Shown in pieces: positions 15,662 to 52,693 of a stretch of 58,319 bases of DNA; within the stretch, counting starts at the first letter, position 1, and every line of letters begins with the position of its first letter. The notes below the pieces were generated by a model. The model was given only the letters and a program-made list of their open reading frames with translations, made no database searches and was not told the origin of the DNA. Origin of the DNA: Parcubacteria group bacterium. GTDB lineage: Bacteria > Patescibacteriota > Minisyncoccia > UBA6257 > Colwellbacteraceae. A program made the translations under genes and the position numbers. Location of the stretch: assembly GCA_041649615.1 (NCBI GenBank), contig JBAZMT010000005.1, positions 1 through 58,319 on the forward strand, written 5' to 3'.

Positions 15662-16684
15662 TTAATTTAAAGGATTATTCTTTTCTCCTTCAATCGTGAT
15701 GACAACGTTTTCCGTGGGAAATTGGCTCAAGGTTCTTACGATTTGCGTTCTTAAAGCAGAAGGACTGCAGCGGACAACGCTTGTGATGGAAGAATAAAAG
15801 TCAATGTAGACGGCATCAGCGCTTACGTTAATGGAACGAATGCGTTCCGTCGGTTTCGCAACAGAAAAAATGCCCGTCTTGGTTTCTTTAGCGTTCGGTC
15901 CTTTTAACATTTCCTCGATCGCGGCTCTTACCGGAGAACGGGAAGCCAAAATCACGCGCTCCACGTAATACGAAGTACTGCAAGAGTCTTTAAGAAAATA
16001 AACTTTTATGCGGGAAGTAAGCCCCGAATAATATCCCCATGAGACGGGAATATTTTCTTTTTCGCCGCAAACCGAAAGTTTTCCGTCAATCATATCGCCC
16101 GACATGGCGTCCAAGGCCGAAGAAAGATCAATAGGAATAGAAAATTTTCCGTCAGAGGAGATATCCGCCGAGAGATCGGTTTCATAGACGGTTCCCGTTC
16201 TTCGGTTATTGAGCTCAAGGCAGGCTTTTCCTTGTTTCCCGTAAGCGATACCTTCCACGTTAAAGGCAAGATTCGTGACGGAATTCAAGGTCGGGGAAAT
16301 CACGGCAATAGGCGGATTTTTGGTTACGTGCAAAGACAAGGCGTAACCCTTCTCCACAACCGCTTCCACATCCATACCGACAACCAGGTCGGTTGAGTTA
16401 ATCGGATTGTTATTGACGTCCGTTACGGCCGCCGAAAAAACGGAGAATGAATGTCCGCCGTCTTCCGATAAAACGGTTATGTCCGTTCGCTCAACCGAAA
16501 TGGAAGTTATCGTTCCTTTTCTCGTATAAGTCCCTTCGCTAACGGAAGTCGTGGTTCCGTTTCCGGTCGGTTCCGGCGATGTAGCGGATTTTTCTTTACC
16601 CGAAAAGAAAAGCAATGCGGTGATAATGACGGCCGCTACAAGAAGAGCCAATCCGACAAGCAATATTTTTATCTTATCGGACAA
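15662..16684 (-). CDS. Membrane-anchored protein with a C-terminal GerMN-like domain
   Basis: 340 aa with an N-terminal TM helix. The C-terminal ~110 aa (IKVYFLKD...VRAAIEEMLKGPN...IRSINVSADAVYIDF...QIVRTLSQFP..VVITIEGE) follow the GerMN pattern. Confidence 0.6.
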   Translation of the reverse strand: MSDKIKILLVGLALLVAAVIITALLFFSGKEKSATSPEPTGNGTTTSVSEGTYTRKGTITSISVERTDITVLSEDGGHSFSVFSAAVTDVNNNPINSTDLVVGMDVEAVVEKGYALSLHVTKNPPIAVISPTLNSVTNLAFNVEGIAYGKQGKACLELNNRRTGTVYETDLSADISSDGKFSIPIDLSSALDAMSGDMIDGKLSVCGEKENIPVSWGYYSGLTSRIKVYFLKDSCSTSYYVERVILASRSPVRAAIEEMLKGPNAKETKTGIFSVAKPTERIRSINVSADAVYIDFYSSITSVVRCSPSALRTQIVRTLSQFPTENVVITIEGEKNNPLN

Positions 16685-16690
16685 GGAAAT

Positions 16691-17458
16691 TTATTTTATT
16701 TCGTAAGTAAGGGTGACCGTAACCGTCAACTCTTGCGAACCGGGTTCAAGAGCAACGGGAGTTCTGGAAGAAAGAGCGGCTTCTTTATAGTAAGAATCCA
16801 TTACCGCTCCCGCCGCATAATAAGGAGTCGCATAACCTTCGTTTATAGAGAGCAATCTTCCAACTTTGAATCCGGCCGAGTCGGCGAGTTCTTTCGCTTT
16901 TATTTTCGCTTTGGATATGGCCTTATCTCTCGCTTCTTTTCGCGTGGCGTCCTCATCGTCAATCTTAAACGTAAGGCTTGAAACGGTGTTTGCTCCTTTT
17001 GTGATAACTCCCGAAAGAATGTCTCCGGTTTTGCTGAAATCGCGCATTTTGACCGTTATGGAAGAAGAAATCGTATAGCCAACAATTTGGCGCGGAGGAC
17101 AAATCCCGTCTCCGTAGCAAGTCGTATATCTCGGAGAAATATCATACCAGCTTGTTTTAACGTCTTTATCTTCCACGCCGTTTTCCTTGACGAAGGAAAT
17201 GATGGCGTTCGTTTTGGCGGTATTTTCGTCTTGAAGAGTTCCTATGTTCGTTCCCCCTTCAGTTACGACGCCGACCGTAAATTCGGCGACATCCGGAATA
17301 CCGACCGCTTCGCCTTCGGCCGACACGGAAAAGTTCCGGAACGACGAGGGCTCAATGGATTTTGAGTAAGTATTGACGTACGATGCGGCGCTTCCGGCGA
17401 GAATAATCGCGAATACCGCGCCCACAATGCCCAAAGCGTTCTTAATAGTCTTGTTCAT
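16691..17458 (-). CDS. SIMPL/DUF541 family periplasmic protein (copy 1)
   Basis: 255 aa with a signal anchor. The pattern is FSVSAEGEAVGIPDVAEFTVGV..., ending in the typical VTVTLTYEI. It is a paralog of 41957..42700. Confidence 0.75.
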   Translation of the reverse strand: MNKTIKNALGIVGAVFAIILAGSAASYVNTYSKSIEPSSFRNFSVSAEGEAVGIPDVAEFTVGVVTEGGTNIGTLQDENTAKTNAIISFVKENGVEDKDVKTSWYDISPRYTTCYGDGICPPRQIVGYTISSSITVKMRDFSKTGDILSGVITKGANTVSSLTFKIDDEDATRKEARDKAISKAKIKAKELADSAGFKVGRLLSINEGYATPYYAAGAVMDSYYKEAALSSRTPVALEPGSQELTVTVTLTYEIK

Positions 17459-17486
17459 TGGTATATCATACCAAATCTGTCGGAAT

Positions 17487-18311
17487 TCAAGGAGTCTTTC
17501 TTTTAAGAGCGTTTAAAACGTAATAAATAATCTGGATTGCGAGGAAAGATATTGCGCCGACAAGGACGATCGCCGATCCCGCACCGATGTTTAAGGAATA
17601 CGAGCTTATGAGACCGATACTTATGAATATTTCCGAGAAAACAATGGCAAGAATACTCATTGCCATAAACGATCGGGCGATGAGTTTGGCGCAAGACGCG
17701 GGAATTATTATGGCCGCCGAGACCAAGACGATCCCCAATACTTTAATGCCCAGAACCGTGGATATGGCCGTGATGATGTAAAAAAGCAATTTTATCGTTT
17801 TGGCTCTTTTGTCTTCGGCAGTGGCGAGTTCTTCACTTAAGGCCAAAAGCCCTATCCGCCTGCGAAGAACGAAAAGCACGATCGTAAACACGACGGCGAG
17901 AACGGCCGAAATAACGGCTTCCGATCTGCTTATCGCAAGAATATTTCCAAAAAGATACGACATAAGTTCCGTTCTGTATCCGGGCGCGAGGCCGATAAGA
18001 ATTAGTCCCAAAGCCATGCCGGAGGTAAATATTATGCCCAAAGCCGCGTCCCCCGAGGCTCCGAATTTTTCTTCAAGAATAAAGATCAGAATGGCAAAAA
18101 CAGCGGCGGCGGCGATGCCGCCGATAATGGGATTATTGCCCATAAGCACGGCGGCGGCGACTCCGGCAAGAGACGCGTGAGCGATACCGTCACCGAAAAA
18201 CGACATTTTTTTCAATACGACAAAAACGCCGACGTAAGAAAGAAGTATCCCAAGCGAAAGGCCGGCAAGGGCCGCGTTCTGCATGAAAGAATATCCAAAT
18301 ATTTCGGTCAT
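17487..18311 (-). CDS. Metal (Zn/Mn-type) ABC transporter permease
   Basis: 274 aa, polytopic, ABC-3 family look (FFGDGIAHASLAGVA, YLFGNIL). Confidence 0.85.
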   Translation of the reverse strand: MTEIFGYSFMQNAALAGLSLGILLSYVGVFVVLKKMSFFGDGIAHASLAGVAAAVLMGNNPIIGGIAAAAVFAILIFILEEKFGASGDAALGIIFTSGMALGLILIGLAPGYRTELMSYLFGNILAISRSEAVISAVLAVVFTIVLFVLRRRIGLLALSEELATAEDKRAKTIKLLFYIITAISTVLGIKVLGIVLVSAAIIIPASCAKLIARSFMAMSILAIVFSEIFISIGLISSYSLNIGAGSAIVLVGAISFLAIQIIYYVLNALKRKTP

Positions 18312-32532: not shown

Positions 32533-34098
32533 TTATTTCCTTTTGGCATCGAACAAGTAAAGAACTTTCAGGCCATAGACCCAATAACAAATACGATTTT
32601 CGTCAAAGGAATCCATATAGAAATGAACCGCGGCTCCTTCGTCAGATGCCACTCCTTCAAGGGCTTCCATTGAATGCTCATACTGCCGAGGGCCCGTCCA
32701 TTGCGCGGAAATGTCTTCGAGCGACCGCCGATAGCTTTTTTTCGTAAGCTCGCGTTCTTTCTGCTTCAACAGACACTCTTTCGACGTTTCGTTTGATGCG
32801 GGCTTCTTTTTTAGGAATACGCCCACTAGCAGCAGAATAACGCTTGCGGGAAGCGAAATATACATGAGCACGATAAAAGCTTCGTATAAACCCGTGAGCC
32901 AACCGGCGCGCGTTTTTTCCGTTTCCTTCACCGCTCCCTGCTTTTCCACTTCGGGGCCGGTGTTCCAGACGATTTTGCCTCCTTCCAGTTTTCCCGTGAG
33001 GGATTCGGAAAGAAATTCATCGCTCACATTGGCTTCCGCGACAGAAGCCTCCAAATGAAGTTTCGCTTTGACCTTCAGGTCAACCGACATCGACGGGCGA
33101 TGGTCAGCAGAGTCAAGGAGATTTACTGCCGTTTTAATGTCTTCCGAATTGAGCGGAATGACCATTTTCCCTTCCGCCGAATCGAACTGCAGGTTTTTCG
33201 AGAGAATGACCTTTTGCCACCTATCAAGGCTCGTTCCTTCCACTTCAACCGTTCCGGAAATTTTTACATTTCCGATTTCCTTATCGGAAGTCAGATCGTA
33301 GAGGAAGATTAGGTCAGCCGCGTTTTCTCCTTGGGTAACGGAGAAGGCTCCCTTCTCCACGGGCTCCGGTTTTTCCGTCTCCGCTTTTTTGCTTATTTTG
33401 GAGACGGAGATGAGCGCGTTTTCGCGGATTTGGGCATCATAGCCGAAGCCGTAAAGGGCCCAACATCCTTCGCCGCGGTGAGCGCCGCTCAATTGATCTT
33501 CTATTTCAAAAACCGAAGAATTGAGCTTTCCGCCTACCGAGGCGACGAGCGTTTCTTTCCCGTCAGTCACCGTCGCTATGATGTCCAGACGGTAGGTGTT
33601 GTCCATGAAGTACTCTATCTGGGAGTTGTATCGCGGGTTTAAGTCCCTTTCGATTTGGGCTCCCGTAGCGAGAATGTTTCCGAAGTCCAGCGGGAAAGAG
33701 ATTTCCATTTTGTCGGAGCGCTTTTTTACTTCGTCCGTTTGGAGAACTTCCTTTTGCCATTTCCCGTTGACTTCCGAAAGTACCGCTCTTACGGAGACAG
33801 TCTTTTCCGACGGTTCGGCTTTTGTGGCTTCATCGCGCGCCAAGACATAGGCGAAATTCATCGTCATATTTTCCGTTATAGGCGGGAAAATGGTCTCGGC
33901 GGCGTTTTGATGATTGCCGTAGGGTTGCAAGGTGAAGCTTCCCGTTTGCTTATAGGAAGCGATTGTCTTTTCTTTTCCGTCTCCCGCGGCGGGGCCGATG
34001 ATGAGCGAACCCACCAGGGACACGACAAAGATAAAAAGAAGAACGAACGGCGCGAGGGTGATGAACGGACGCTTTGTCCGCCACTTTGGAATTCTCAT
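32533..34098 (-). CDS. Bitopic membrane protein with a large ectodomain, partner of the SipW-like peptidase (possibly DUF5305-like; unverified)
   Basis: 521 aa with an N-terminal TM helix (FITLAPFVLLFIFVVSLVGSLII) and a second TM helix near residue 410 (FIVLMYISLPASVILLLVGVF), then a cytoplasmic tail of ~85 aa. Its ATG overlaps the peptidase TGA (ATGA at 34095-34098). Confidence 0.7.
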   Translation of the reverse strand: MRIPKWRTKRPFITLAPFVLLFIFVVSLVGSLIIGPAAGDGKEKTIASYKQTGSFTLQPYGNHQNAAETIFPPITENMTMNFAYVLARDEATKAEPSEKTVSVRAVLSEVNGKWQKEVLQTDEVKKRSDKMEISFPLDFGNILATGAQIERDLNPRYNSQIEYFMDNTYRLDIIATVTDGKETLVASVGGKLNSSVFEIEDQLSGAHRGEGCWALYGFGYDAQIRENALISVSKISKKAETEKPEPVEKGAFSVTQGENAADLIFLYDLTSDKEIGNVKISGTVEVEGTSLDRWQKVILSKNLQFDSAEGKMVIPLNSEDIKTAVNLLDSADHRPSMSVDLKVKAKLHLEASVAEANVSDEFLSESLTGKLEGGKIVWNTGPEVEKQGAVKETEKTRAGWLTGLYEAFIVLMYISLPASVILLLVGVFLKKKPASNETSKECLLKQKERELTKKSYRRSLEDISAQWTGPRQYEHSMEALEGVASDEGAAVHFYMDSFDENRICYWVYGLKVLYLFDAKRK

Positions 34099-35045
34099 TC
34101 AGTTATCCTCCTTTTGATTCTTTCTTTCCGTCGAGGTTTTTTAACCGCCACGAGGACGATTACTACGCCGACCGGAATGAGTATTTCGAGAGTCATCGCG
34201 GCCACCACTGCATAGGGCGACCATTTGAAAAGATTGTGAACAAGAGAGAGCGGCAAGGGCAGCAACGGGAGAAACGAACCGCTTTTGAGCGTGATATTTT
34301 TTTTATCCGACTCAATCGCGATTATTTTTTCTTCTCCCGGAATCAAAAGAAAGTTATCTTCCGATAGCGTGCCGTCGGAGACAAGAAAGATCTCCATGGG
34401 CAACAGGGTTGTCACTTTTTTTTCCATCACATATCCGCCATCGGGATGTTCAATGAGAACCGTTCTCTGTTCGGTCACACCGTGGCCAATCATTGACCAC
34501 GCGCATATTCCGATGACCGCGAGAATAACCAAAGCGTTTTTCATCGAGAACGCTTCGGCACGCGTCGGTCTCCTCTTTTCCTTTTCAAGAAGAATGACGA
34601 GAATCAGCGCACTTCCCAGAACAAAGAGAAGGCTCATTAGGGCGATCTTGTTTCCAAGAACGAATCCGAGAAGAGGAATTCTTCCGCGAGCTTTCCCGAG
34701 AAAATTGTCTTTAGTGACAACTTTCTGGTCAGGCGTTTTGTTGGCGTCTCCTTTCGTCGTTATGAAGATGTCCTCCCCGCGTTTTTCGATGCTTACGGCT
34801 CTATGCACCGTCAAATCGGTGCTGTCGTTAGGGCTACTGAAGACGATTATGTCTCCGATTTCCACTTTGGATATGTCGGTTTTGATACAAAGATGTTCGT
34901 CTCCAAGACATAGGGTCGGAACCATGCTTTCGCTCGTGACATGATGAAAGCTCCAGCCGACAAGAGGCATTACAACGGCGATAAAAAAGAAGATGAAAAG
35001 AGCTATTACGGTGAGTGCATCGGGAACGATTTTTTTGAGAGTCAC
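34095..35045 (-). CDS. SipW/archaeal-type signal peptidase I (S26B) with extra C-terminal TM segments
   Basis: The boxes are HHVTSESMVPTL (Ser), VHRAV (His) and TTKGDANKTPD. I place the start at GTG 35045 (MTLKKIVPDAL...), 10 nt after AAGGAGG. The track start TTG 35156 is itself the -35 hexamer TTGACA. Confidence 0.8.
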   Translation of the reverse strand: MTLKKIVPDALTVIALFIFFFIAVVMPLVGWSFHHVTSESMVPTLCLGDEHLCIKTDISKVEIGDIIVFSSPNDSTDLTVHRAVSIEKRGEDIFITTKGDANKTPDQKVVTKDNFLGKARGRIPLLGFVLGNKIALMSLLFVLGSALILVILLEKEKRRPTRAEAFSMKNALVILAVIGICAWSMIGHGVTEQRTVLIEHPDGGYVMEKKVTTLLPMEIFLVSDGTLSEDNFLLIPGEEKIIAIESDKKNITLKSGSFLPLLPLPLSLVHNLFKWSPYAVVAAMTLEILIPVGVVIVLVAVKKPRRKERIKRRITE

Positions 35046-35126
35046 TACGCACGAACCTCCTTTACGCGAATTATTTATCTTATTTGGTTGAAAAAGGCCT
35101 GGCTCCGGTGTTCCAGAGTTCGGGTT

Positions 35127-35156
35127 AGAATAATCAGAAAAAGTAGTTTTTGTCAA
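35127..35156 (-). promoter_or_regulatory. Putative sigma70-type promoter of the sipW-like operon
   Basis: On the minus strand, TTGACA (35156..35151), an 18-nt spacer, then TATTCT (35132..35127). Confidence 0.45.
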
Positions 35157-36936: not shown

Positions 36937-37515
36937 TTATCCCCAGTAGCTGAAGGTGTTCATCGGCATAACAGTGAACGTATAGGTAAACGTAGCTTCA
37001 ACGTTTTGAGAGGTATTGTCTGCGGCATCATCGAGCTTGAATTCCCAGATAAAACAGTGGATGGCACCGGAATTTAGGTTTCCCAATGTTTCAGCCGAGT
37101 CAATATGAAGGTTATTTAATTTCCCCTCATAAATTATCGGCCAATCGCTAGCGTCGGTTGTCCCGCCGTTCGTTTTGCGAATGCAAACCATAATCGCGTC
37201 CGCGAAGCCGGGAAACGATTCAGAACTGGCCTCTGCGCTGATTTTATATCTGACGGGCAGAAGGCCGAGGTTCTTTATAGTCATCGGTTTGGGTTCACTC
37301 CAAACGCCAGGAGCCAGTTTTCCGTCTGGAGACGGCGAGCCGGTAATTGTTATTCCCGTGGCGTTTATCTTCGCGTTTGCACCAGCGGATGCGACGTCTA
37401 TCGAGACTTTGTTGCAAAGAAGGCAAATGATGTTCCCGATAGCGGTGACAAGAAGCAGGAAAACTAAGACGATAAAGATAATAGTCGAGACGGGCGTCTT
37501 TTTCTTCTCATCCAC
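36937..37515 (-). CDS. Divergent TasA-like secreted protein C (minor subunit candidate)
   Basis: 192 aa. The GTG start lies 7 nt after AGGAGGA. It has a K-rich n-region and a long hydrophobic helix. The body (PGVWSEPKPMTIKNLGLLPVRYKISAEAS) resembles the PGD...N.G strand of copies A and B. This assignment is weaker than for A and B. Confidence 0.55.
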   Translation of the reverse strand: MDEKKKTPVSTIIFIVLVFLLLVTAIGNIICLLCNKVSIDVASAGANAKINATGITITGSPSPDGKLAPGVWSEPKPMTIKNLGLLPVRYKISAEASSESFPGFADAIMVCIRKTNGGTTDASDWPIIYEGKLNNLHIDSAETLGNLNSGAIHCFIWEFKLDDAADNTSQNVEATFTYTFTVMPMNTFSYWG

Positions 37516-37591: not shown

Positions 37592-37714
37592 CTAGGTTCT
37601 CATCTTACTGATCAAACACAGGATCACGCCTATGGCCGTAAGCACTATGATGGCGATTAAAAATATTTCTCGCCATTTTTCTTGATTGGAAACAGCTTTT
37701 TTCTTTTTCTTCAT
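37592..37714 (-). CDS. Possible 40-aa single-TM micro-protein
   Basis: Own translation gives MKKKKKAVSNQEKWREIFLIAIIVLTAIGVILCLISKMRT. It is below the track length cut-off and has no clear SD. Confidence 0.3.
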   Translation of the reverse strand: MKKKKKAVSNQEKWREIFLIAIIVLTAIGVILCLISKMRT

Positions 37715-37732
37715 CGCTTTAATAATTATACC

Positions 37733-37766
37733 AACAAAGACACCGCGATCGCGGTGTCTTTGTTGT
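37733..37766. terminator. Perfect 34-nt palindrome (17-bp arms), likely the terminator of 37778..39268
   Basis: CAACAAAGACACCGCGA|TCGCGGTGTCTTTGTTG sits directly after the stop codon of the upstream gene. Confidence 0.6.
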
Positions 37767-37777
37767 TTAATGTCTGC

Positions 37778-39268
37778 TTATGGCTTTTGTATGCAATAGG
37801 TGTTATAGGCGGCGTTAAAGTAATGAGTTATCTGGGACGAGACAGTATTTTGTTTTGATGGATCCTTAAAATAAACAATATTAGTGTCTGGATTAATCTT
37901 GCCTGTCGCGTCAAGAGTAAGGGACATTCCGTCCAAGACAAGGTAATGATTCCCGAAACGAGGTTGCCAGGTAAGGTCGCTTAGAGAAAATTTGATGCTG
38001 TTGGTTTTTGTGTGTCCGATCGCTACTCCTCCCGATTCAAAACAAGTTTTCAGGTCTTCCGGCGTTTCCGGTATAACGTAAGAAGTAAGCCCATATTGAG
38101 CGGGAATATTTTGAGAAACAAAAGCTCTTTCCACCGTGCCCTTGCCGCATATTCGATACCCTTTAGTGGTCATCAGGCTTCCAACTGTTGTAACGGCGTT
38201 TTCGGAAGTGGCGTATTGATTGCCCGTGAAGTAAAGAAGAACCATGGCAAAAGAAGTGGGAGCGCATCCGGACCAGGAGAAATTTTTGCATCCTGCTTTG
38301 CCGTATCTTATTTTCCCCCAGCGGGGATCTCCCTGCGCCAAGCGAATAACTCCCATTTGGATAGTAGGAATCTCATCGTTAGGTTTCTTTATGGGAATAG
38401 GTTCTACTGCCAAACAGTATTTTTGACTCGTGGGCTTGTTAAAAACGGGGCCGGTAGTGAAATTAATGCTGCTCGGGTTATTTGTGACTGGCGTGAATAA
38501 TTTATTCACGATGGCTTGCAGGCTTTGACCCGTTTGATTAAAAGCGATAATTATGCGTACGGTTTTTCCTTTGGATTCGTTTCGCAGTTCTTTTATGGGT
38601 ATGCATCTGTTGCTTATTCGAGTGTTTAAATCAGCGAGTATTTTTGCAACCGTTACGTTAGTAGGAATATTTATGATGGCAATGGTGCGGCTTCTTTCAT
38701 CCAATTTCATTTTTTTAGAGTCAACTTTCAAGTCCCCCGTCTTCGGATCACGCCCTAAAATATAAAATCTTTCCGGTTCGTAAGAATTGTCATCTCCGAC
38801 AAGAGGACTGTCAGCGGGTGGATCCATGTCTATGTCTTCATCCACCGAACCGATTTTTGGATCAATCTTCGGGGTACCTATAACCGCACCAAGATTCGTA
38901 ATGGATGGAAGAGAGATTCCTCCTATAGACGCTCCCAATTTTTCAAAAATATTAAGCGTTTGGGATATTGCTCCCATCTTCAGGCTCGTACCGGTTTTAG
39001 CAAGACTCGGATTTGTCCGATCATTTATCGTTGAAAGTCCGATGTCTACAGCTGAAATGATTAAATAACTTCCTGTGATTATCACGAGTCCTTGGATGGC
39101 CGCCCATGTCCAGGTCTCTTTTTCTTTGAGGCTTTTTTTCTTAGCGGTAGCTCTTTTTATCGCTCCATACGCAACAAGTCCGAGCGCAAATATCGCACTG
39201 ATCCCTAAAGCATAGAGAAAGATATTTTGAACAGGATTATTCGGGGAAAGCCATTCGGTAATGTTCAT
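37778..39268 (-). CDS. Pilin-hairpin / GyrA-tower-like / C39-like cysteine peptidase fusion protein, paralog 1
   Basis: 496 aa. The N-terminus (NPVQNIFLYALGISAIFALGLVAYGAIKR...AAIQGLVIITGSYLIISAV) has the two-TM VirB2/TrbC-like pilin layout. The C-terminus carries SGCAPTSFAMVLLYF (Cys), GNHYLVLDG (His) and KDP. Confidence 0.7.
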   Translation of the reverse strand: MNITEWLSPNNPVQNIFLYALGISAIFALGLVAYGAIKRATAKKKSLKEKETWTWAAIQGLVIITGSYLIISAVDIGLSTINDRTNPSLAKTGTSLKMGAISQTLNIFEKLGASIGGISLPSITNLGAVIGTPKIDPKIGSVDEDIDMDPPADSPLVGDDNSYEPERFYILGRDPKTGDLKVDSKKMKLDERSRTIAIINIPTNVTVAKILADLNTRISNRCIPIKELRNESKGKTVRIIIAFNQTGQSLQAIVNKLFTPVTNNPSSINFTTGPVFNKPTSQKYCLAVEPIPIKKPNDEIPTIQMGVIRLAQGDPRWGKIRYGKAGCKNFSWSGCAPTSFAMVLLYFTGNQYATSENAVTTVGSLMTTKGYRICGKGTVERAFVSQNIPAQYGLTSYVIPETPEDLKTCFESGGVAIGHTKTNSIKFSLSDLTWQPRFGNHYLVLDGMSLTLDATGKINPDTNIVYFKDPSKQNTVSSQITHYFNAAYNTYCIQKP

Positions 39269-39305
39269 CGGTGTGTTTTATTTTGTTTTTCTGCCGCTAT
39301 TTGTA

Positions 39306-40721
39306 TTAATACCTAAGAGTTGAATTACAGGTATTTGCGGGTCCAAAAGCGCCGCAGACCTCATAATATCCGCATGAACCGCATGAACTGACTGTTCGTT
39401 GCTTTCCACAGTTGTCAGGACCGGTGAAAGACCCGCATTCTAAACCGCGTCTGGAACAAAACGCGGTATCTGTTTCCGAAGTGCATCCGTTTTCGCAAAC
39501 CGCGTTAATATTCACGTCCGCTTTTTTGCCGCCCGCTCCTGTGCCGCTGATGCACCAGGTTGCCCTGTCGCGTTTAAAATAGTGCGCTATTTCCGATGAT
39601 TTAGTGCGACCCCCGGGGTCGGCTATGATAAATAAATTTTTAGTTTCGTCTATGCCTTTAACCACAATGTAGTGAGCATAATCCGTGAATTGAGGATGCC
39701 ACGTGTGGTCTTTTGGATCATCGTTTGAAGCCGCCATCGAACCGATCATCACTCCTCCTTTAAGGAAACAATTTTTCGCTTCTTTTTGATTATTAACTTC
39801 GGTGGATGTTAGGCCGTAGCTTTTGGGAATTCTCGTGAATGCCGATGAGTACACTCCGCTTGGCTCGTTACCGTTGCATTTTTTCATTCCGCCTTTAACT
39901 ATCTGCGCTCCTATGGTTTGAACAGCGGTGCTTTTAGTCAAATATTGGTTTTTTGTAAGATAAAGGATAGTCATGGCGAGAGACGTCGGTCCACATCCTC
40001 TGTTTCTAAACGTGTGTTGAGTCGGACAACCCGGCACGCATATTGGTTTGTCTCCCCAGGGGCTTTGGCCTTGATATAATTGCGGCACTGCGGCGGTGTA
40101 AACTAATTTATCGGACGGCGCTAATTCACCCGTTTCTCGAGGTGTAAGAAGTTGTCCGGCAATAGTATTTGCGTCAAAACCATCTTTGATGGTGATAACA
40201 ATTGAAATATTGTTTCCAACGGACTCATCTTTTATTGAATCCACTCCTTGAATGTTCGCTTCCGTTATGCGCGCGTTCAGATCGTTGATTAATTCTTCCT
40301 TCGTTACCCCTTCCGGCAACCATTTCAACGTGATTTTGCCCGGCTCTATCAGGACTTTACTTGTGTCATATATGGGAAGGCCGGTCCCAAAATCAATTCC
40401 TTCAAAAAAAGAGCCTTCAAGCGGTGGAGGAATTTCTAACGGGTCAACTAAAAGATCAAGAGGAGCGGAGCTAATTGTTAATATCCCGGGATTTACAACG
40501 GAGAGAATAATGAATCCACCGGCAAGAATCATAAGTCCTTTGGCGGCAGACCATATCCAGGACATCGCTTCTTTTTTTTGACTCGCATTATCTCGCGAGA
40601 GGATATATCTTATGCCTCCGTACATTACGACTCCGAAAGAGACAACGGCTCCCAGTCCAAGACCGAACAGGAATATATTCTGGACTCCTCCGATTGCTCC
40701 AAACCAGTCGTTGATGTTCAT
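39306..40721 (-). CDS. Pilin-hairpin / GyrA-tower-like / C39-like cysteine peptidase fusion protein, paralog 2, with a Cys-rich C-terminal tail
   Basis: 471 aa with GGVQNIFLFGLGLGAVVSFGVVMYGGIRY...AAKGLMILAGGFIILSVV, then RGCGPTSLAMTILYL, AHYIVVKG and ADPGG. The last ~70 aa contain 10 Cys. Confidence 0.7.
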   Translation of the reverse strand: MNINDWFGAIGGVQNIFLFGLGLGAVVSFGVVMYGGIRYILSRDNASQKKEAMSWIWSAAKGLMILAGGFIILSVVNPGILTISSAPLDLLVDPLEIPPPLEGSFFEGIDFGTGLPIYDTSKVLIEPGKITLKWLPEGVTKEELINDLNARITEANIQGVDSIKDESVGNNISIVITIKDGFDANTIAGQLLTPRETGELAPSDKLVYTAAVPQLYQGQSPWGDKPICVPGCPTQHTFRNRGCGPTSLAMTILYLTKNQYLTKSTAVQTIGAQIVKGGMKKCNGNEPSGVYSSAFTRIPKSYGLTSTEVNNQKEAKNCFLKGGVMIGSMAASNDDPKDHTWHPQFTDYAHYIVVKGIDETKNLFIIADPGGRTKSSEIAHYFKRDRATWCISGTGAGGKKADVNINAVCENGCTSETDTAFCSRRGLECGSFTGPDNCGKQRTVSSCGSCGYYEVCGAFGPANTCNSTLRY

Positions 40722-40774
40722 AAAGTTAATTGTAACATAGAAAAACGCCCCATTTTTACGTGGGGCGTTATGAT

Positions 40775-41212
40775 TTATGTGGAATACTCCGTTCCGATTT
40801 CGTGGCCGCCGTCGCAGATGTCACCGTCTCCGAATGATCTGCCGCAGATGTTGCATTTGTTCCCGTTCGCCTTACAAAGCACCCTTTGAAGCTTCTCGCT
40901 GTTCCAGTATTCCTCTGCCTCGGAAAAAATAACAGAGACTTTGGATTCCGAATAAAGTCTCTTTACGGCTTTTCCGATCATTCGGGCGAGTTGATGGCAA
41001 ATTTCTGCTTTTCCCTGCAAGGTTATTTCTACAAGAATTGTTTCGCCTAATCCGAACTCCATGAGATTGGCCGAAAAAAGGCATAGCATCTCATCCTCGT
41101 TCGCTACCCCGAGTGCGGAAAGGCTGGTGCACACACTCGTGATCGCTCCAAAAAGGTATTTGAGTTGCACTTTCGAACTTTTCAGCGAGCACCAGACTCT
41201 GACGGTCAACAT
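40775..41212 (-). CDS. Hypothetical protein with a C-terminal CCCH zinc-ribbon-like motif (paralogous tail to 53380..53715)
   Basis: 145 aa with SD AAGGAGA. The tail is RVLCKANGNKCNICGRSFGDGDICDGGHEIGTEY. Confidence 0.6.
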   Translation of the reverse strand: MLTVRVWCSLKSSKVQLKYLFGAITSVCTSLSALGVANEDEMLCLFSANLMEFGLGETILVEITLQGKAEICHQLARMIGKAVKRLYSESKVSVIFSEAEEYWNSEKLQRVLCKANGNKCNICGRSFGDGDICDGGHEIGTEYST

Positions 41213-46849: not shown

Positions 46850-49800
46850 TTAATCACCGTTTATTACTTCTTTAAGATTCCAAAACATACTGTTGCCTTT
46901 TTCAATCAAAAGGTTAATAAGATCGATAACTTTCTGCTTCATCGCTGTATCGCCAGCCTTATAAATTATGTCGAGGGATTGTTTAATTTCATTGTCGAGA
47001 TTAAATAATGGCGCACGTCGATTCTGGTTCAAATTACCAGTTGAATCCAATAGGAAATGCTGGATTATTTCTAAAGTCTTTTCTCCATTTTTTTGAGCAA
47101 AGACGGGGAGCCTTCTCATAAGACCGTAATCCCAGTCGATATCTCCATTTGATTTCTCAAGCGTCTCTGCTACTCGTCCAATCACCTCTTCATCACTCAA
47201 GACTTCTTTATTTGGATTTATCCAAAATCCAAAACCCGCAAGGGGCTCCGGCTCCCTAACGTTCTCCAATGCCCAATCCCAAAACTTCAATAGTTTATCC
47301 TTACTAACTTTATTTTCATTTAGCCATTCATCTCCAGCTTGATCTCGAATTAAGCAGCTGCGACCAATGAAGGATATGAACTCTTGATATCTCTTAGAAT
47401 TAGACGTGCTCCAAAATTGCTGAAATAGCGAGTCCTCGATTTCAAGACCTAAATGAGCGAAAGCAAGCGCGATGTGGACCGCTAGGGATTCATCAAGCCC
47501 CTTGGAGTACTTTCGCCCTGTGTAGATCTTCGGATCAAGAGTAATCGCGTGGCTATAATAAGCACTAAGGTCGATAAAAAGTTTATCGTAGAGAGTATTG
47601 GAAAGATATCCTTCCCAGCTTGCTAGATAAAGGTCTTTTTTAGCAGGATCATCTTTAGGGAATATTTCCGGCAAAAGCCCAGTAACAAATTCCTTATCTC
47701 GAAAATAAAAGGTCGCCAAGTATCGACCAATGACAAACCGAACCGCAAGCGAATCATCAGCAAGAGCCTGCTTAAATAAAGCCTTTGTATCGTCGGCCAA
47801 AGTCTTGCCATCATTCTCAGTGAACACGACAAACGCCTCGTATGCCCGGCCACGCACAGAATTAATCGCCACATGATAAGGCTCACCGTACTCTGGTTTC
47901 TCATGCTCCTTGGAAGGACTATCTTTTATAGACAGAAGGTATGAAATTAAATCCTTTATTTTTATTCGGTTTTGTTTGTGATTATCATCTCGTGTTTCTT
48001 TATTCTCGAGAATGTATAACAGAGCGTCGGTTATTACCTTATGAACTTCAATCCAGTCTGCAAGCCATGATTTATCGTCTTTACGCCTAAAAGGAGTTGC
48101 CTCGCCGCTTTTTTTGATCGCGTCGCAGAGACCTAATAATTGTTCTATCTGAATTAGCGTCAATATTTGTTTATTACGAAGCATCTCTTCAATGCCGCGC
48201 AGAAGTGAATATACATAAGCAGGATGAATATTATCTCGATCGAAGAAAGAAGTGATTTTGCTTAGGTATTCATCGGTGCGCTTTTTAACGTCCTCTTTAA
48301 TAGAATCACCCAAACCTTCCACACCTCGAGGGCTAAGAAAATCGTCATCTTTAAACTGCTCCTTTAATTTCTCTGGAGACCAGTCTGATTTTAGATTTGC
48401 AATAATTTGGTCAACAGCGTAATCCGCTACATTCACCGGGGACCTGTGAGCAACAAAACCAGATTGAATTTTTCCTACAGAAGGCTGAGGAGTATATTCT
48501 GCGTCACACTTGCTTCCAAATATTTCTTCACATTTTTCCGCCTCTTCTACTGTAAGGTGAGTACAAATGCTAGATATAATCTCCCAGCCTGTACGTTTAT
48601 GCCAGGCCTGATCTGGATGCTCCTCCGCTTTCTTCGAAAAATAACTGAATACCTGAGCGACATAAGTACGCTGATCAGCGTCGTCAAGGTAATAAAATCC
48701 AATTTTTAGAGTTTTTTTGTATTCAGTCCCACCTTCAATATCGTAGTAATTTTCTACCTCAAATAATTTGAAAAAGGCGGCCTTAAGTTCTGTCTTAAAT
48801 ACAGTCGGGCATTGAGAAAGAGCAAACATTCTTAAACGCCATGTTGCCCGACAAGTTGGAAGAGTATCAATATATTCAAACAGCCTCTTGGCATTAGCAG
48901 GAGTATCACATTTCTTGCCGATCGTTCCTTCGATCAATTTCTTTATAATCGCAGCAAGATTTTTTATATCCTCTCGGTATGAATAACTGTGTTTATCTTC
49001 AATCTCTAAGGTGAAAATATCGACATCATACAAAGAAAATAGATCTGAATATTGAAATGCTCCAGAATCGTCTGGCGTAGCTAACTTAACAATCTCACTC
49101 ATGACGGCCGTAGTTATTTGCAAGGCTTTTTCCTTATGCAAATCATCAATACCTTCTAATGCCTCAAAAATACCGGAAGCATCAAGATCACTAGCATAGA
49201 ACGGATCGTCCATACCAAAACCAGCAGCTTTTTCAGCCATCTCCGCTTTGCTTTTAGCTAACAGCATCGCCTGTGCTAATTCCAAAATAGCGTCATTCTC
49301 TCTTTTCTCTACTAACTTTTCTACGATTCGAGTAAATTCATAACCGCTTTTACGGAAACTGCGCATAAGATAAACCCACTTCTCATCACGAATCTTTGCT
49401 GTGAGCGTCTTTATTTGTTCTGCCGGAAGCGAACCGATAATCCACATAAAGCGGTCTACCACTTCAGGATTGAAATTTGCTTCAGAGATCGAAGCAGATG
49501 TAATAATCTCAGCAACCTTGATTGGGTTCTTATTGACCATTCGAAGCAGATATTCCAATTCTGAAAGTCGATAAGAATAACTAGTTGTATTTTCTGCTTT
49601 CTTTTTTATCTCATCGAGAAAGCCGTTCTTCCAAAGCCACTCAATCCGAGTTTCATTGGCCTGCGAAAAGAAGTAACGCTTAGCGTCATAGCTCAAAGAG
49701 AACAGTAACCACAAGTATGACGCATCCTGATTATTCTCTTTAAGGAAAGCGTCGATCTTCTCGTGAATCTTGAGAGGATCAAGCGATGATTCCTTCAGTG

Positions 49801-50386
49801 TATTTTCAAATACTTGAACAAGATTATTAAAATCTTTTTCTGTGGGAAAATCCTTCTCATCTACAGTTATCCCAAGCTGTTTAAATATTCTTATAGCACC
49901 TTCCTTACTTTTCTTTTCTGCAAAGTGATGCGAGATTTTTGTAAAAGCTAAATGGGTTTTATATAGGGTGTTGGCAATGATTTTTGCACGTTTCTGTTCG
50001 TGAAGGACTTCAAGGACGCCTCCAATTTTCTCTCTTTTTGTCTGAAGGTTAAGAAGCTTATTGAGAGAATTATTTTTAAACCCAAACTTACTTAACAATG
50101 AATAAAGCTTAACCTTAATTTTGAAATAAACATTCTGATCCTTTTGGCCCCCTAGTCTATAAAGCAGTTCCCGGTAAGAATGAGCAGACTGAGCCATCCA
50201 ATCAGGGTTAGAAGTGGCACTATGTACAACAGCTAGCGCACCTTTAATCAGGTCAGATGGCAAAACTCCATCCGGACAAATTTTTTCTTTCTCGTTAAGA
50301 CGATCCAAATAATTACAAATCCACTCTTGATGTGACTCAAGTTTAAGTGGTCGATCTATCTTGATGTCTAAGTCCTTATCTTCCAT
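46850..50386 (-). CDS. 1178-aa orphan protein, apparently all alpha-helical repeat, with no catalytic or NTP-binding motif recognised
   Basis: It is one uninterrupted ORF in an AT-rich island. I found no Walker A, HEXXH, PD-(D/E)XK, HNH or TM segment. It is divergently transcribed from the LexA-methyltransferase gene. Confidence 0.75.
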   Translation of the reverse strand: MEDKDLDIKIDRPLKLESHQEWICNYLDRLNEKEKICPDGVLPSDLIKGALAVVHSATSNPDWMAQSAHSYRELLYRLGGQKDQNVYFKIKVKLYSLLSKFGFKNNSLNKLLNLQTKREKIGGVLEVLHEQKRAKIIANTLYKTHLAFTKISHHFAEKKSKEGAIRIFKQLGITVDEKDFPTEKDFNNLVQVFENTLKESSLDPLKIHEKIDAFLKENNQDASYLWLLFSLSYDAKRYFFSQANETRIEWLWKNGFLDEIKKKAENTTSYSYRLSELEYLLRMVNKNPIKVAEIITSASISEANFNPEVVDRFMWIIGSLPAEQIKTLTAKIRDEKWVYLMRSFRKSGYEFTRIVEKLVEKRENDAILELAQAMLLAKSKAEMAEKAAGFGMDDPFYASDLDASGIFEALEGIDDLHKEKALQITTAVMSEIVKLATPDDSGAFQYSDLFSLYDVDIFTLEIEDKHSYSYREDIKNLAAIIKKLIEGTIGKKCDTPANAKRLFEYIDTLPTCRATWRLRMFALSQCPTVFKTELKAAFFKLFEVENYYDIEGGTEYKKTLKIGFYYLDDADQRTYVAQVFSYFSKKAEEHPDQAWHKRTGWEIISSICTHLTVEEAEKCEEIFGSKCDAEYTPQPSVGKIQSGFVAHRSPVNVADYAVDQIIANLKSDWSPEKLKEQFKDDDFLSPRGVEGLGDSIKEDVKKRTDEYLSKITSFFDRDNIHPAYVYSLLRGIEEMLRNKQILTLIQIEQLLGLCDAIKKSGEATPFRRKDDKSWLADWIEVHKVITDALLYILENKETRDDNHKQNRIKIKDLISYLLSIKDSPSKEHEKPEYGEPYHVAINSVRGRAYEAFVVFTENDGKTLADDTKALFKQALADDSLAVRFVIGRYLATFYFRDKEFVTGLLPEIFPKDDPAKKDLYLASWEGYLSNTLYDKLFIDLSAYYSHAITLDPKIYTGRKYSKGLDESLAVHIALAFAHLGLEIEDSLFQQFWSTSNSKRYQEFISFIGRSCLIRDQAGDEWLNENKVSKDKLLKFWDWALENVREPEPLAGFGFWINPNKEVLSDEEVIGRVAETLEKSNGDIDWDYGLMRRLPVFAQKNGEKTLEIIQHFLLDSTGNLNQNRRAPLFNLDNEIKQSLDIIYKAGDTAMKQKVIDLINLLIEKGNSMFWNLKEVINGD

Positions 50387-50479: not shown

Positions 50480-52009
50480 ATGCCTATACCAATTACTAAA
50501 AGACAAAAAGAGGCTCTGGACTTTATAAAGAAGTTTATCCGTAAGAAAAAATACCCTCCAACATTGGAGGAAATATGTTTGGGGCTTAAGCTTTCGGCGG
50601 TCTCAACTGTCCATCAGCATATAAAGGCCTTGGCCGAAAAGGGTTATTTAAAAAAGGTTGGAAATAATGCTCGAGCTATTCATATCTACGAATCTGAGCC
50701 TATGATCCAAATTCCCTTCTTGGGAACAATCGCGGCAGGAGAGCCAATCGAAGCAATCAGACAAAACGAGTTTATATCAGTACCAAAGGCAAAACTACCG
50801 AAAAGCGGGCAAGTTTATGCTTTGCGTGTGAGCGGCAATAGTATGATTGATGAAAATATTAAAGACGGAGATGTTGTTTTGGTAAAACAGCAAGAGGTGG
50901 CAGAAAACGGCCAGCGAGTAGTTGCTTTGATAGATAACTATGAAGCAACCCTAAAGAAATTTTATAAAGAGCGTGCGCAAATTAGATTACAACCCGCAAA
51001 TTCAGCCTACGAGCCGATAATCATTAGAAAAGATCGGGATATAAAAATTCAGGGAATTGTTGTTGACGTTATTCAAAATGAAAAAGAACTACTAGCGGAG
51101 AAGATAGAAACAGCGACTGTAAAAAGAACAAAAACTTTGCCACTCAATAAAATTATTTTAGGAGACGCGGTGGCAGAACTAAAAAAGCTCCCAAGTGAAA
51201 GTTGTGATGTTATCATAATCGACCCCCCTTACAATATCGGCAAAGATTTTGGGAATAATATTGATAAAAGAGAATTGAGCGAATACGTTGCTTGGTGTAA
51301 AGAATGGATAAACGAGTGTATTCGTGTGATGAAGCCGACAGCAACTATGTTTATTTACGGTTTTAGCGAAATCCTTGCTCATTTGTCGGTAGGGATACCA
51401 ATAAACAAACGTTGGCTTATTTGGCACTACACAAACAAAAATATTGCCTCTCTTAATTTTTGGCAAAGAAGCCACGAGGCAATTATTTGTGCGTGGAAAG
51501 ATAAACCGACTTTTAATCGCGATGAAGTTAGAGAGCCATACACCGAAGGGTTTTTGAATGGAGCCGCGGGGAAAGTGAGGAGAGGAACACTCGGCAGATT
51601 TAGTAAAAATGGAATAGAAACTGTTTACAAAGCACATGAAGGCGGAGCATTACCTCGCGATGTCATTAAAATTGCCGCTTTAGCCGGTGGAGCGGGAATG
51701 GTTGAAAGGTGGTTTTTGTGCAAAACTTGCAATGATGTTTTTGAACCGCAAGAACTACAAAAACACAGCGGACACAAAATTATGAAGCACCCAACACAAA
51801 AACCGCTTGAACTTTCGCGAAAACTTATAAAATCGGCAATGCCTAAAAAAGACGGGGTTGTCTTAGTGCCGTTCGTTGGTACTGGCTCGGAGTGTGCGGC
51901 CTCAAAAGAATTAGGACAATCTTACATCGGATTTGAAATAAACCCGGACTATGTGCGAATAGCGGAAAAAATGGTTGATAGTGTAAGAATTGCTCCTAAA
52001 TTATTTTAG
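50480..52009 (+). CDS. Fusion protein: full-length LexA (wHTH + S24 autopeptidase) joined to a beta-class N6A/N4C DNA methyltransferase
   Basis: Residues 1-200 carry the LexA wHTH, the FLGTIAAGEPIEA cleavage site (A-G), the Ser box RVSGNSM, the Lys in EATLKKF and the ending IQGIVVDVI. Residues ~215-509 carry motif IV IIIDPPYNIG, HPTQKPLEL and motif I VLVPFVGTGSE. Confidence 0.85.
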   Translation: MPIPITKRQKEALDFIKKFIRKKKYPPTLEEICLGLKLSAVSTVHQHIKALAEKGYLKKVGNNARAIHIYESEPMIQIPFLGTIAAGEPIEAIRQNEFISVPKAKLPKSGQVYALRVSGNSMIDENIKDGDVVLVKQQEVAENGQRVVALIDNYEATLKKFYKERAQIRLQPANSAYEPIIIRKDRDIKIQGIVVDVIQNEKELLAEKIETATVKRTKTLPLNKIILGDAVAELKKLPSESCDVIIIDPPYNIGKDFGNNIDKRELSEYVAWCKEWINECIRVMKPTATMFIYGFSEILAHLSVGIPINKRWLIWHYTNKNIASLNFWQRSHEAIICAWKDKPTFNRDEVREPYTEGFLNGAAGKVRRGTLGRFSKNGIETVYKAHEGGALPRDVIKIAALAGGAGMVERWFLCKTCNDVFEPQELQKHSGHKIMKHPTQKPLELSRKLIKSAMPKKDGVVLVPFVGTGSECAASKELGQSYIGFEINPDYVRIAEKMVDSVRIAPKLF

Positions 52010-52693
52010 AGATTGATCTATTTCTGCCCTCTCTCTTTCAAAAGCAAAAGGAGTAAAAACAACAAATCCATTGGGAAGTCTCTTTAATTCTTTATTCGTC
52101 ATAAATCTTGAATAGGGCAACTTATATGCACCGTCTTTTTTCTTTGGATTAACAAAATAATCATCGCTCGGTACTTCGTATTTTATATCAATAAATTTTC
52201 CGTCTATAATTTTCTTTGATTTTTTCTCCGCTCTAACCTCTCTGCTAAAAGTCGCTTTCTTAACTTGATAATTCAATATCACTCCATGGTATTTGACTTG
52301 AAAGTCGGCCCCTTGATGATCTAACTCCGCTGACATTGCAACCGTTCCGTCGCCGTAGACTGATTCCGCAACATAACCGGCATGAATTTGCGTAATGATG
52401 CTTGCCCATGTGCGATAAATTCTCGCCGGAAGTCCGCGATAAAAACAATCCTTGCACATTGTTATCTTTTGTCGGAATGATTCAATTTCTGATTTTTTAG
52501 AACCGAGATACTCTTCATAAAAATCCTCAAAGTCTAAAAATTTCTTTTGGTCCCAATAGACTTTGTACAGCATTTCTATCACCTGTATTTCTTTGGGCAA
52601 GTCCATTTCAACGAGTTTAATTGGCCTATATTTTTCGCGATAGACCTTAAGATCAACCGACTCTAAAAATTTTGTAAATTTATTTAGCAACAT
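52001..52693 (-). CDS. Putative type II restriction endonuclease (cognate of the fused methyltransferase)
   Basis: 230 aa, directly downstream of a C-protein gene and convergent with the methyltransferase (9-nt overlap). A possible PD-(D/E)XK-like core is ELDHQGADFQVKY...NYQVKK. The call rests mainly on context. Confidence 0.5.
   Translation of the reverse strand: MLLNKFTKFLESVDLKVYREKYRPIKLVEMDLPKEIQVIEMLYKVYWDQKKFLDFEDFYEEYLGSKKSEIESFRQKITMCKDCFYRGLPARIYRTWASIITQIHAGYVAESVYGDGTVAMSAELDHQGADFQVKYHGVILNYQVKKATFSREVRAEKKSKKIIDGKFIDIKYEVPSDDYFVNPKKKDGAYKLPYSRFMTNKELKRLPNGFVVFTPFAFERERAEIDQSLK

Follow-up and report, generated by a model that had tools for sequence, protein, structure and literature searches.

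Two adjacent genes on the minus strand of a 58,319-nucleotide (nt) stretch of contig JBAZMT010000005.1 from a Parcubacteria group bacterium (hereafter the window) encode proteins that couple a hairpin resembling the pilins of type IV secretion systems (T4SS) to a papain-fold cysteine peptidase domain. The downstream gene, par1, occupies 37778..39268 (-) and encodes 496 amino acids (aa); the upstream gene, par2, occupies 39306..40721 (-) and encodes 471 aa. par2 consists of the hairpin, a module resembling the tower of DNA gyrase subunit A (GyrA), a C39_2 peptidase domain and a Cys-rich tail, and par1, a divergent paralog, has a longer linker of its own (aa 82-167). A first-pass annotation of the sequence had described both open reading frames (ORFs) as tandem paralogs; they lie where it placed them, on the minus strand, and are paralogous over their full length (BLASTP E=7e-37, 27% identity). 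The motifs it quoted were likewise found, namely GGVQNIFLFGLGLGAVVSFGVVMYGGIRY in par2 and NPVQNIFLYALGISAIFALGLVAYGAIKR in par1, together with the peptidase motifs GCGPTSLAM...HYIVVKG...ADP in par2 and GCAPTSFAM...HYLVLDG...KDP in par1.

The N-terminal segment comprises aa 1-88 of par2 (40458..40721, minus strand) and aa 1-81 of par1 (39026..39268, minus strand), and corresponds to a two-helix hairpin of the VirB2-like T4SS-pilin type with a basic loop. Hydropathy analysis delimited segments at residues 8-41 and 55-88 of par2 and at 12-38 and 55-81 of par1, and the AlphaFold2 (AF2) model of par2 placed helices at residues 12-41 and 46-76. The inter-helix loop contains four Lys and Arg residues in par2 and seven in par1, and the N-terminal tail contains none. 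This combined pattern of hydropathy and charge predicts that the N-tail and the C-terminus lie outside the membrane and the loop inside. Just before helix 1, par1 carries NN where relatives show GG. Residues 11-69 of par2 are 49% identical (E=7e-19) to a standalone 112-aa pilin encoded beside VirB4 in a related locus (L003), and the same pilin shares 68% identity with the N-terminal 84 aa of another fusion protein, P0005. The genes for P0005 and a further fusion, P0004, are each followed by a standalone pilin gene of 109-112 aa, which the source database marks as a weak match to PF18895 (T4SS_pilin), and a VirB4/TraC-like ATPase is encoded immediately upstream of the P0005 fusion. PF18895 matches five of six family members at E<=1, with a best value of E=5.7e-6, and the family profile recovers many standalone pilin-sized proteins of 90-150 aa. 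The proposal of a T4SS-pilin-like hairpin is thus backed by identity to a VirB4-linked pilin, by hydropathy, by the basic loop and by the modeled helices, and at the sequence level the hairpin is homologous to the VirB2-like T4SS pilins of Patescibacteria. Judged by their residues, the N-termini do not look like cleavable Sec signal peptides. Two hydrophobic segments, an uncharged N-tail, a basic loop, two AF2 helices and the pilin homology all argue for a retained hairpin rather than a cleaved signal peptide.

The C-terminal domain of par2 (aa 206-393; 39543..40106, minus strand) is a Peptidase_C39_2 domain of papain fold carrying Gln217, Cys243, His350 and Asp368, and its C39_2-like counterpart in par1 (aa 303-494; 37787..38362, minus strand) carries Gln312, Cys335, His441 and Asp469. 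Pfam family PF13529 scored 48.4 bits on par2 (E=1.9e-12; cutoff 24 bits) and matched six of six family members. With Pfam alone, par1 reached 18.6 bits, which is under the cutoff; with the family sub-profile hidden Markov model (HMM) it reached E=4e-83, and its sequence marks the domain as an unambiguous homolog of that in par2. Across a 32-sequence alignment of diverse fusions, just five columns are invariant, corresponding to Q217, C243, G289, H350 and D368 of par2; by alignment, these are the papain-type catalytic set, with the Gln as oxyanion residue, plus one Gly, and Q312, C335, H441 and D469 of par1 fall in the same catalytic columns. Searching the domain profile against the PDB returned LahT (6mpz, E=9.6e-9) as the top sequence match, along with the pseudomurein endoisopeptidase PeiR (8z4h, E=5.5e-8), ComA (3k8u, E=2e-6) and 3ERV, the C39_2 type structure (E=2.3e-6), and the Cys, His and Asp residues aligned with the catalytic residues of LahT, PeiR and ComA. 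The AF2 domain model built from the alignment had a predicted local distance difference test (pLDDT) score of 94.6 and a predicted template modeling score of 0.91. A Foldseek search of the PDB ranked PeiR first (E=1.2e-6), followed by 3ERV, ComA, phytochelatin synthase, PCAT1 and staphopain. The nearest viral models were a tape-measure protein, tail hydrolases of the phi29 gp13-like "morphogenesis protein 1" type and endolysins, with E-values down to 6e-11 and TM-scores up to 0.75. The model scores, the aligned catalytic residues and the Pfam match together bear out the papain-like fold with aligned Cys and His that the first-pass annotation had proposed. PF03412, the C39 bacteriocin-processing peptidase family, matched at E=0.018 only, and Pfam detected neither ABC transporter domains nor SLT or CHAP domains in par1 or par2.

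Between hairpin and peptidase lies a shared module (par2 aa 101-195, 40137..40421; par1 aa 168-259, 38492..38767; both on the minus strand). The first-pass annotation had recognized it in both proteins, but gave its length as about 65 aa rather than about 95 aa and missed its origin. PF00521 (DNA_topoisoIV) matched both copies at profile positions ~204-301 of 432, at scores below its 31-bit cutoff (23.7 bits, E=2.6e-5, for par2 and 26.9 bits, E=2.8e-6, for par1). NCBIfam GyrA/ParC models likewise gave consistent sub-threshold matches in both paralogs, the tower sub-HMM detected the par1 module at E=4e-29, and the family profile matched PDB GyrA chains at E=1.5e-6. By BLASTP, par2 aa 101-195 aligned with residues 220-323 of a GyrA from the candidate phyla radiation (CPR) at E=1e-10, and this alignment spans the GPDFPTGG region (FFEGIDFGTGLPIYD versus FIKGPDFPTGGVVYD), where par2 has FFEGIDFGTG. 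The AF2 model of the module (pLDDT 78-90) was superposed by Foldseek on Bacillus subtilis GyrA (4ddq) with a root-mean-square deviation of 2.0 Å over 75 columns at 31% identity. Sequence and modeling identify the module as a piece captured from the GyrA/ParC tower (PF00521, ~residues 220-323 of GyrA), with likeness in both sequence and structure over ~75-105 residues including the GPDFPTGG region. In contrast to GyrA and ParC, par1 and par2 hold this fragment only, without winged-helix domain, catalytic Tyr or dimer interfaces, and the fragment sits in a predicted extracytoplasmic protein. A role as topoisomerases was considered and ruled out, since the full breakage-reunion domain and the catalytic Tyr are missing. 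A piece of DNA gyrase subunit A placed in a surface-protein role would represent an unusual domain exaptation.

The closest relative, a metagenome-assembled genome of Parcubacteria, encodes a single fusion protein, P0002, which is 57% identical to par2 and 31% identical to par1; on this sequence evidence par2 is the ortholog of P0002. As the relative has one copy of the fusion gene, the pair in the window represents a tandem duplication. The public gene call for par2 (P0001, 419 aa) begins at Met53 and loses helix 1. Every homolog retains helix 1 in frame, and we therefore regard this call as wrong and the ATG at 40721 as the real start. Upstream of this ATG (region 40721-40769, minus strand), TACAAT lies ~8 nt away and a Shine-Dalgarno sequence is absent, and the par2 mRNA may, from these sequence features, be leaderless or near-leaderless. 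Present annotation names such proteins merely "C39 family peptidase", as NCBI does for P0002, and the public call of par2 omits the first pilin helix.

par2 ends in a Cys-rich C-terminal tail (aa 394-471; 39309..39542, minus strand) with nine Cys residues, which no homolog possesses. The tail had been described at 39306-39530 with ten Cys; it is indeed present on paralog 2, but that range holds nine, the tenth being the conserved Cys390 inside the peptidase domain. AF2 assigned the tail no confident fold (pLDDT ~30), and comparison with the other retrieved proteins gave no significant similarity (best E=0.11). Cys-rich C-terminal extensions are seen repeatedly among pilin-hairpin proteins, one of which contains as many as 46 Cys, and DsbA/thioredoxin-like genes adjoin the fusion gene in two loci. 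Examples of such tails or of DsbA/thioredoxin-like genes are found at L088 9881-10291, in P0006, P0028 and P0127, and at L090 7925-8593 and L056 3008-3664. The tails and their DsbA neighbors suggest disulfide-rich extracellular appendages, which is perhaps relevant to the par2 tail.

The distribution of the fusion became visible through an exhaustive search of representative proteins; word-indexed single-sequence and profile searches returned five matches each. The exhaustive profile search retrieved 9805 proteins at E<=1e-3, of which the best 150, together with five proteins from the earlier searches, were classified with separate sub-profiles. Among the classified proteins, 52 combined the hairpin with a C39 domain, 80 had the hairpin alone (74-891 aa) and 23 had the C39 domain alone. 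The search in other CPR genomes that the first-pass annotation had recommended thus turned up many examples of the fusion, and the hairpin-C39_2 fusion is a recurrent architecture. Those that carry a taxonomic label come from Patescibacteria, including Saccharibacteria. Within the same classified set, the tower module is limited to four representative clusters (window par2, P0002, P0003 and P0011). Accessory domains vary: P0003 carries PG_binding_1 (E=2e-15), CBM5/12 was found in P0004 and P0005 by Pfam and in P0007 by sequence inspection, and P0011 combines hairpin, GyrA-like module, PG_binding_1 and Peptidase_M23. P0012 and P0013 join pilin hairpins to an SLT lytic transglycosylase domain, and the L088 locus encodes, in order, VirB4, a pilin-M23 fusion, a pilin-CBM-C39_2 fusion and a pilin. 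The catalytic module is therefore swappable among C39_2, M23 and SLT on the same pilin chassis.

Several further observations concern these relatives. Sister proteins built on the chassis of pilin hairpin, GyrA-like module and PG_binding_1, but with Peptidase_M23 replacing C39_2, comprise P0011 and those encoded at L093 9836-11314, L094 1795-3273 and L095 373-1848; L093 also carries the true gyrA (15703-18150). In some Patescibacterial proteins (P0010, P0020, P0025, P0012 and P0013), three T4SS_pilin hairpins follow one another within a single polypeptide, and two of these proteins end in SLT.

The genomic setting was surveyed in every retrieved locus by means of local HMMs. At least six lineages have a hairpin-C39 fusion within a few genes downstream of VirB4 (L003-5, L088, L090, L010, L021 and L029); L010, L021 and L029 include Saccharibacteria, and L090, which lies on a 941-kb contig, also encodes PrgI, DsbA and further pilins. 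Neither VirB4 nor TasA-like genes were seen near the fusion in L006, L056, L085, L097 and L098. A fragment upstream of P0004 (L007) was considered as a VirB4 C-terminus and rejected, and this locus is not counted as VirB4-linked. Fusions beside TasA-like genes were found in the window and in its closest relative (P0002; L001/L002/L008), where the order of fusion gene, 192-aa ORF, M73-like genes and P-type ATPase is kept; TasA-like neighbors are missing at the fusion loci of the other relatives.

Taken together, we consider it probable that par1 and par2 are cell-wall endopeptidases anchored outside the membrane by a pilin hairpin and tied to T4SS or pilus biology. In this scheme the hairpin would insert with its short N-tail outside, the basic loop in the cytoplasm and the C-terminus outside, so that the tower-derived module and the papain-fold peptidase (C39_2, PeiR-like) would be displayed on the cell surface. 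The outside location is predicted because of the positive-inside charge distribution, the extracytoplasmic type of the partner domains and the signal peptides that precede the hairpins of the L056, L029 and L010 homologs. The peptidase would most likely cleave peptide or isopeptide bonds of cell-wall peptidoglycan. A wall substrate is favored by PeiR as the nearest structure, by the phage-lysin neighbors, by the PG_binding_1 and CBM5/12 partners, by the exchange for M23 and SLT, and by the use of C39_2 as an endolysin domain; published catalogs list C39_2 among the catalytic domains of endolysins (PMC8223927, PMC10541714), and PeiR is itself wall-lytic (PMC4592898, PMC6189367). As a pilin paralog, the anchor would probably draw the enzyme into the membrane pilin pool at the site of T4SS pilus assembly, and possibly even into the pilus itself. 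At the assembly site the enzyme may open the wall locally in the manner of VirB1, or attack the wall of a host bacterium. In this genome, the gene has been duplicated in tandem and is found beside a TasA-like/SipW-like fiber locus rather than at a T4SS locus, and par2 has gained its Cys-rich tail. It is also conceivable, albeit doubtful, that the pilin domain is assembly-competent and that the fusion forms a minor or tip subunit of a T4SS pilus, a "lysin-tipped pilus" bringing a C39_2, M23 or SLT enzyme to the host wall. If true, such a device would resemble phage tails with tip lysins, would serve CPR epibionts as a general means of host penetration, and would account for the lack of a recognizable VirB1 in most such genomes.

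Several results weigh against a pilus-linked wall enzyme. The PF18895 match of par2 reached 14.4 bits (E=0.041) against a gathering cutoff of 26.6 bits, and Pfam gave no PF18895 match for par1 at E<=1. No VirB4 was found among window ORFs of >=500 aa, and no standalone pilin or other hairpin gene was found in the 58-kb window, so the T4SS linkage is documented for relatives only. The leading PDB sequence match, LahT, is a protease of double-glycine (GG) leaders, which leaves room for a protein substrate, and a PHROGs scan of par1 and par2 returned no matches. The function of C39_2 is without experimental proof (PMC10318531), and a C-terminal load of ~300-400 aa may be sterically incompatible with the packing of a VirB2-type filament.

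The LahT match raises a different reading, in which the enzymes act as processing proteases, like the C39 double-glycine leader peptidases, and mature pilins (by cutting off the short N-tail after a GG) or secreted proteins such as the TasA-like ones from the outer face of the membrane. ComA also matches, an (I/L)PGG motif stands right before helix 1 in this pilin subfamily, both in fusions and in adjacent standalone pilins, the pilin N-tail and the peptidase are predicted on the same membrane side, and secreted TasA-like genes adjoin. Yet no more than 30 of 127 hairpin proteins have the GG; in its place the majority of the other hairpin-C39 fusions show LP(E/D/Q)YI(K/A), and par1 carries NN. 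The closest structural neighbors are wall hydrolases, the accessory modules are of wall- or glycan-binding types, the same chassis accepts the wall hydrolases M23 and SLT, and the TasA-like locus owns an S26/SipW-like peptidase, all of which makes a processing role rather unlikely. A protein substrate of another kind is envisaged if the proteins are interbacterial toxins delivered by a T4SS, with the tower-like module mimicking GyrA to dock on host GyrB/ParE and the peptidase cleaving these partners. A precedent exists in Cpe1, a C39-related papain-like toxin whose cleavage site in GyrB/ParE is a GG motif (PMC12136450), and the structural matches include Cpe1 itself (9l5u) and a related CdiA-CT toxin (8ssk); the middle module is, moreover, truly GyrA-derived. 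These toxin matches are nevertheless weaker than those to PeiR and 3ERV. PG_binding_1 accompanies the module in P0003 and P0011, an M23 wall hydrolase follows in P0011, and CBM5/12 takes the place of the module in P0004, P0005 and P0007. There is no evident immunity gene, and par1 and par2 are predicted integral membrane proteins. We accordingly consider a toxin function highly improbable.

The setting of the window copies prompts a further question, namely whether the hairpin is merely an inherited membrane anchor. The enzymes would then be autolysins or wall remodelers with no T4SS role, perhaps co-opted for the passage of TasA-like fibers through the wall. The lack of VirB4 and standalone pilins in the window fits this explanation, as do the gene order shared with the closest relative and the position of P0003, likewise outside any visible T4SS locus. 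A simple anchor, however, would not need to be conserved at 49% identity to a true pilin, the TasA synteny extends to one other genome only, and the window represents part of a genome in which a T4SS may be encoded elsewhere. The par2-par1 pair is also flanked by hairpins, and a promoter-like site and a Shine-Dalgarno sequence specific to the TasA-like genes are present. On balance, a purely anchoring hairpin appears unlikely, though less so than a processing protease.

A pilin-anchored wall enzyme of this kind can be compared with several known systems. In monoderm conjugation, VirB1-type wall hydrolases (TraG of pIP501, PrgK of pCF10 and CwlT of ICEBs1) are membrane-anchored, modular and encoded beside VirB4 (PMC12102498). 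They often join a papain-clan Cys peptidase (CHAP or NlpC/P60) to M23 or SLT, and the secretion machine requires them for opening the wall (PMC12102498). Relatives of par1 and par2 similarly have C39_2, M23 and SLT modules directly downstream of VirB4. par1 and par2 differ from VirB1-type enzymes in that the anchor is a VirB2-like pilin hairpin rather than a plain transmembrane helix, the Cys peptidase is of the C39_2/PeiR-like rather than the CHAP or NlpC/P60 type, a GyrA-derived module is added, and the window copies lie outside any T4SS locus. With the VirB2-like pilins of Patescibacteria (PF18895), such as the Southlakia epibionticum array, they share the two-helix hairpin with its Y..SGD...K..A..WI..A..GL signature and tandem paralogy (PMC12102498; PMC10633639), and their relatives are located near VirB4 and dnaA. 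Canonical pilins (~100-140 aa) have no enzymatic domain, whereas par1 and par2 add a C-terminal extension of 300-400 aa. The peptidase domain shares its papain fold and Cys/His/Asp triad with PeiR, PeiW and PeiP and with PF13529 (3ERV). PeiR, the closest structure, is only ~17% identical and is a soluble phage enzyme that acts on archaeal pseudomurein and bears different wall-binding repeats. The C39 domains of ABC exporters (ComA, LahT and PCAT1; PF03412) share the fold and aligned catalytic residues, but par1 and par2 lack an ABC fusion, are predicted to be extracytoplasmic instead of cytoplasmic, and belong to a hairpin-C39 family for which a GG-leader substrate is not supported throughout. 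They are thus neither members of the ABC-linked C39 family nor topoisomerases, and would best be described as a variant of T4SS-associated wall hydrolases that is pilin-anchored, of C39_2/PeiR type, equipped with a GyrA-derived module and homologous to PF18895 and PF13529.

The T4SS of Patescibacteria resembles monoderm conjugation machinery and includes VirB2-like pilin arrays, often near dnaA; most genomes with these pilins have no recognizable VirB1 (PMC12102498). In Southlakia, the only genetically tractable member, the T4SS and the VirB2-like pilin array are essential for epibiotic growth (PMC10633639). Patescibacteria (CPR) depend on host bacteria, and pilin-hydrolase fusions downstream of VirB4 are candidates for the missing VirB1 activity or for an attack on the host wall. 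Neither pilin-hydrolase fusions nor C39 are mentioned in PMC12102498, PMC10633639 or the Southlakia supplements, and no described pilin-C39 or pilin-hydrolase fusion was found in the literature searched, whose coverage was incomplete. The combination of pilin, GyrA fragment and papain-type peptidase is apparently an undescribed design.

The immediate surroundings of the gene pair bear on the view, put forward in the first-pass annotation, that it may form one cell-surface or host-interaction island with the TasA-like locus. The same-strand adjacency to Peptidase_M73 (TasA/camelysin-like) genes is real, and the synteny recurs in one relative. Strong hairpins, however, bracket par2-par1, the 192-aa ORF downstream is preceded by a Shine-Dalgarno sequence and a promoter-like site of its own, and most relatives lie in T4SS loci; the single-island view is therefore only weakly supported. 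On the upstream side, a terminator-like hairpin with a T-run (40744..40769, minus strand) ends the preceding gene. On the downstream side, 13 nt past the par1 stop, a palindrome at 37732..37765 forms a perfect 15-bp stem, CAACAAAGACACCGCGATCGCGGTGTCTTTGTTG, immediately followed by GGTATAAT; it may represent a terminator followed by a -10 element, and it is likely the 3' boundary of the par2-par1 unit. Since promoter and terminator scan counts were not above shuffled expectation, only these two gene-adjacent strong hairpins were used, as weak evidence.

Directly downstream of par1 lies the 192-aa ORF (36937-37515, minus strand), syntenic in the relative, for which neither a Pfam match nor BLAST similarity to either of the two Peptidase_M73 (TasA-like) ORFs was found. 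A TasA-like assignment for it was not adopted, as its match to the local "tasa" HMM is circular, the ORF being part of the seed alignment. Between it and par1, a 40-aa ORF, MKKKKKAVSNQEKWREIFLIAIIVLTAIGVILCLISKMRT (37592-37714, minus strand), has one predicted membrane helix and no equivalent in the syntenic relative L001. The TasA-like cluster further includes an S26 signal-peptidase-like (SipW-like) protein of 353 aa with extra C-terminal membrane segments (34095-35156, minus strand) and a 521-aa protein without Pfam match (32533-34098, minus strand), and the order of these two genes is kept in L001. Upstream of par2, a 145-aa ORF (40775-41212, minus strand) is rich in Cys and His at its C-terminus, CNICGRSFGDGDICDGGHE, lacks a Pfam match and ends at the terminator-like hairpin.

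Elsewhere in the window, an ORF of 1178 aa (46850-50386, minus strand) had no Pfam match at E<=0.001. A 509-aa protein encoded at 50480-52009 on the plus strand unites three domains, namely LexA DNA-binding, Peptidase_S24 autocleavage and N6/N4 DNA methylase, and a TaqI-like restriction endonuclease gene (52001-52693, minus strand) overlaps the 3' end of this methylase gene convergently. The pair at 50480-52693 has the appearance of a restriction-modification system in which methylase and LexA-type repressor form one protein.

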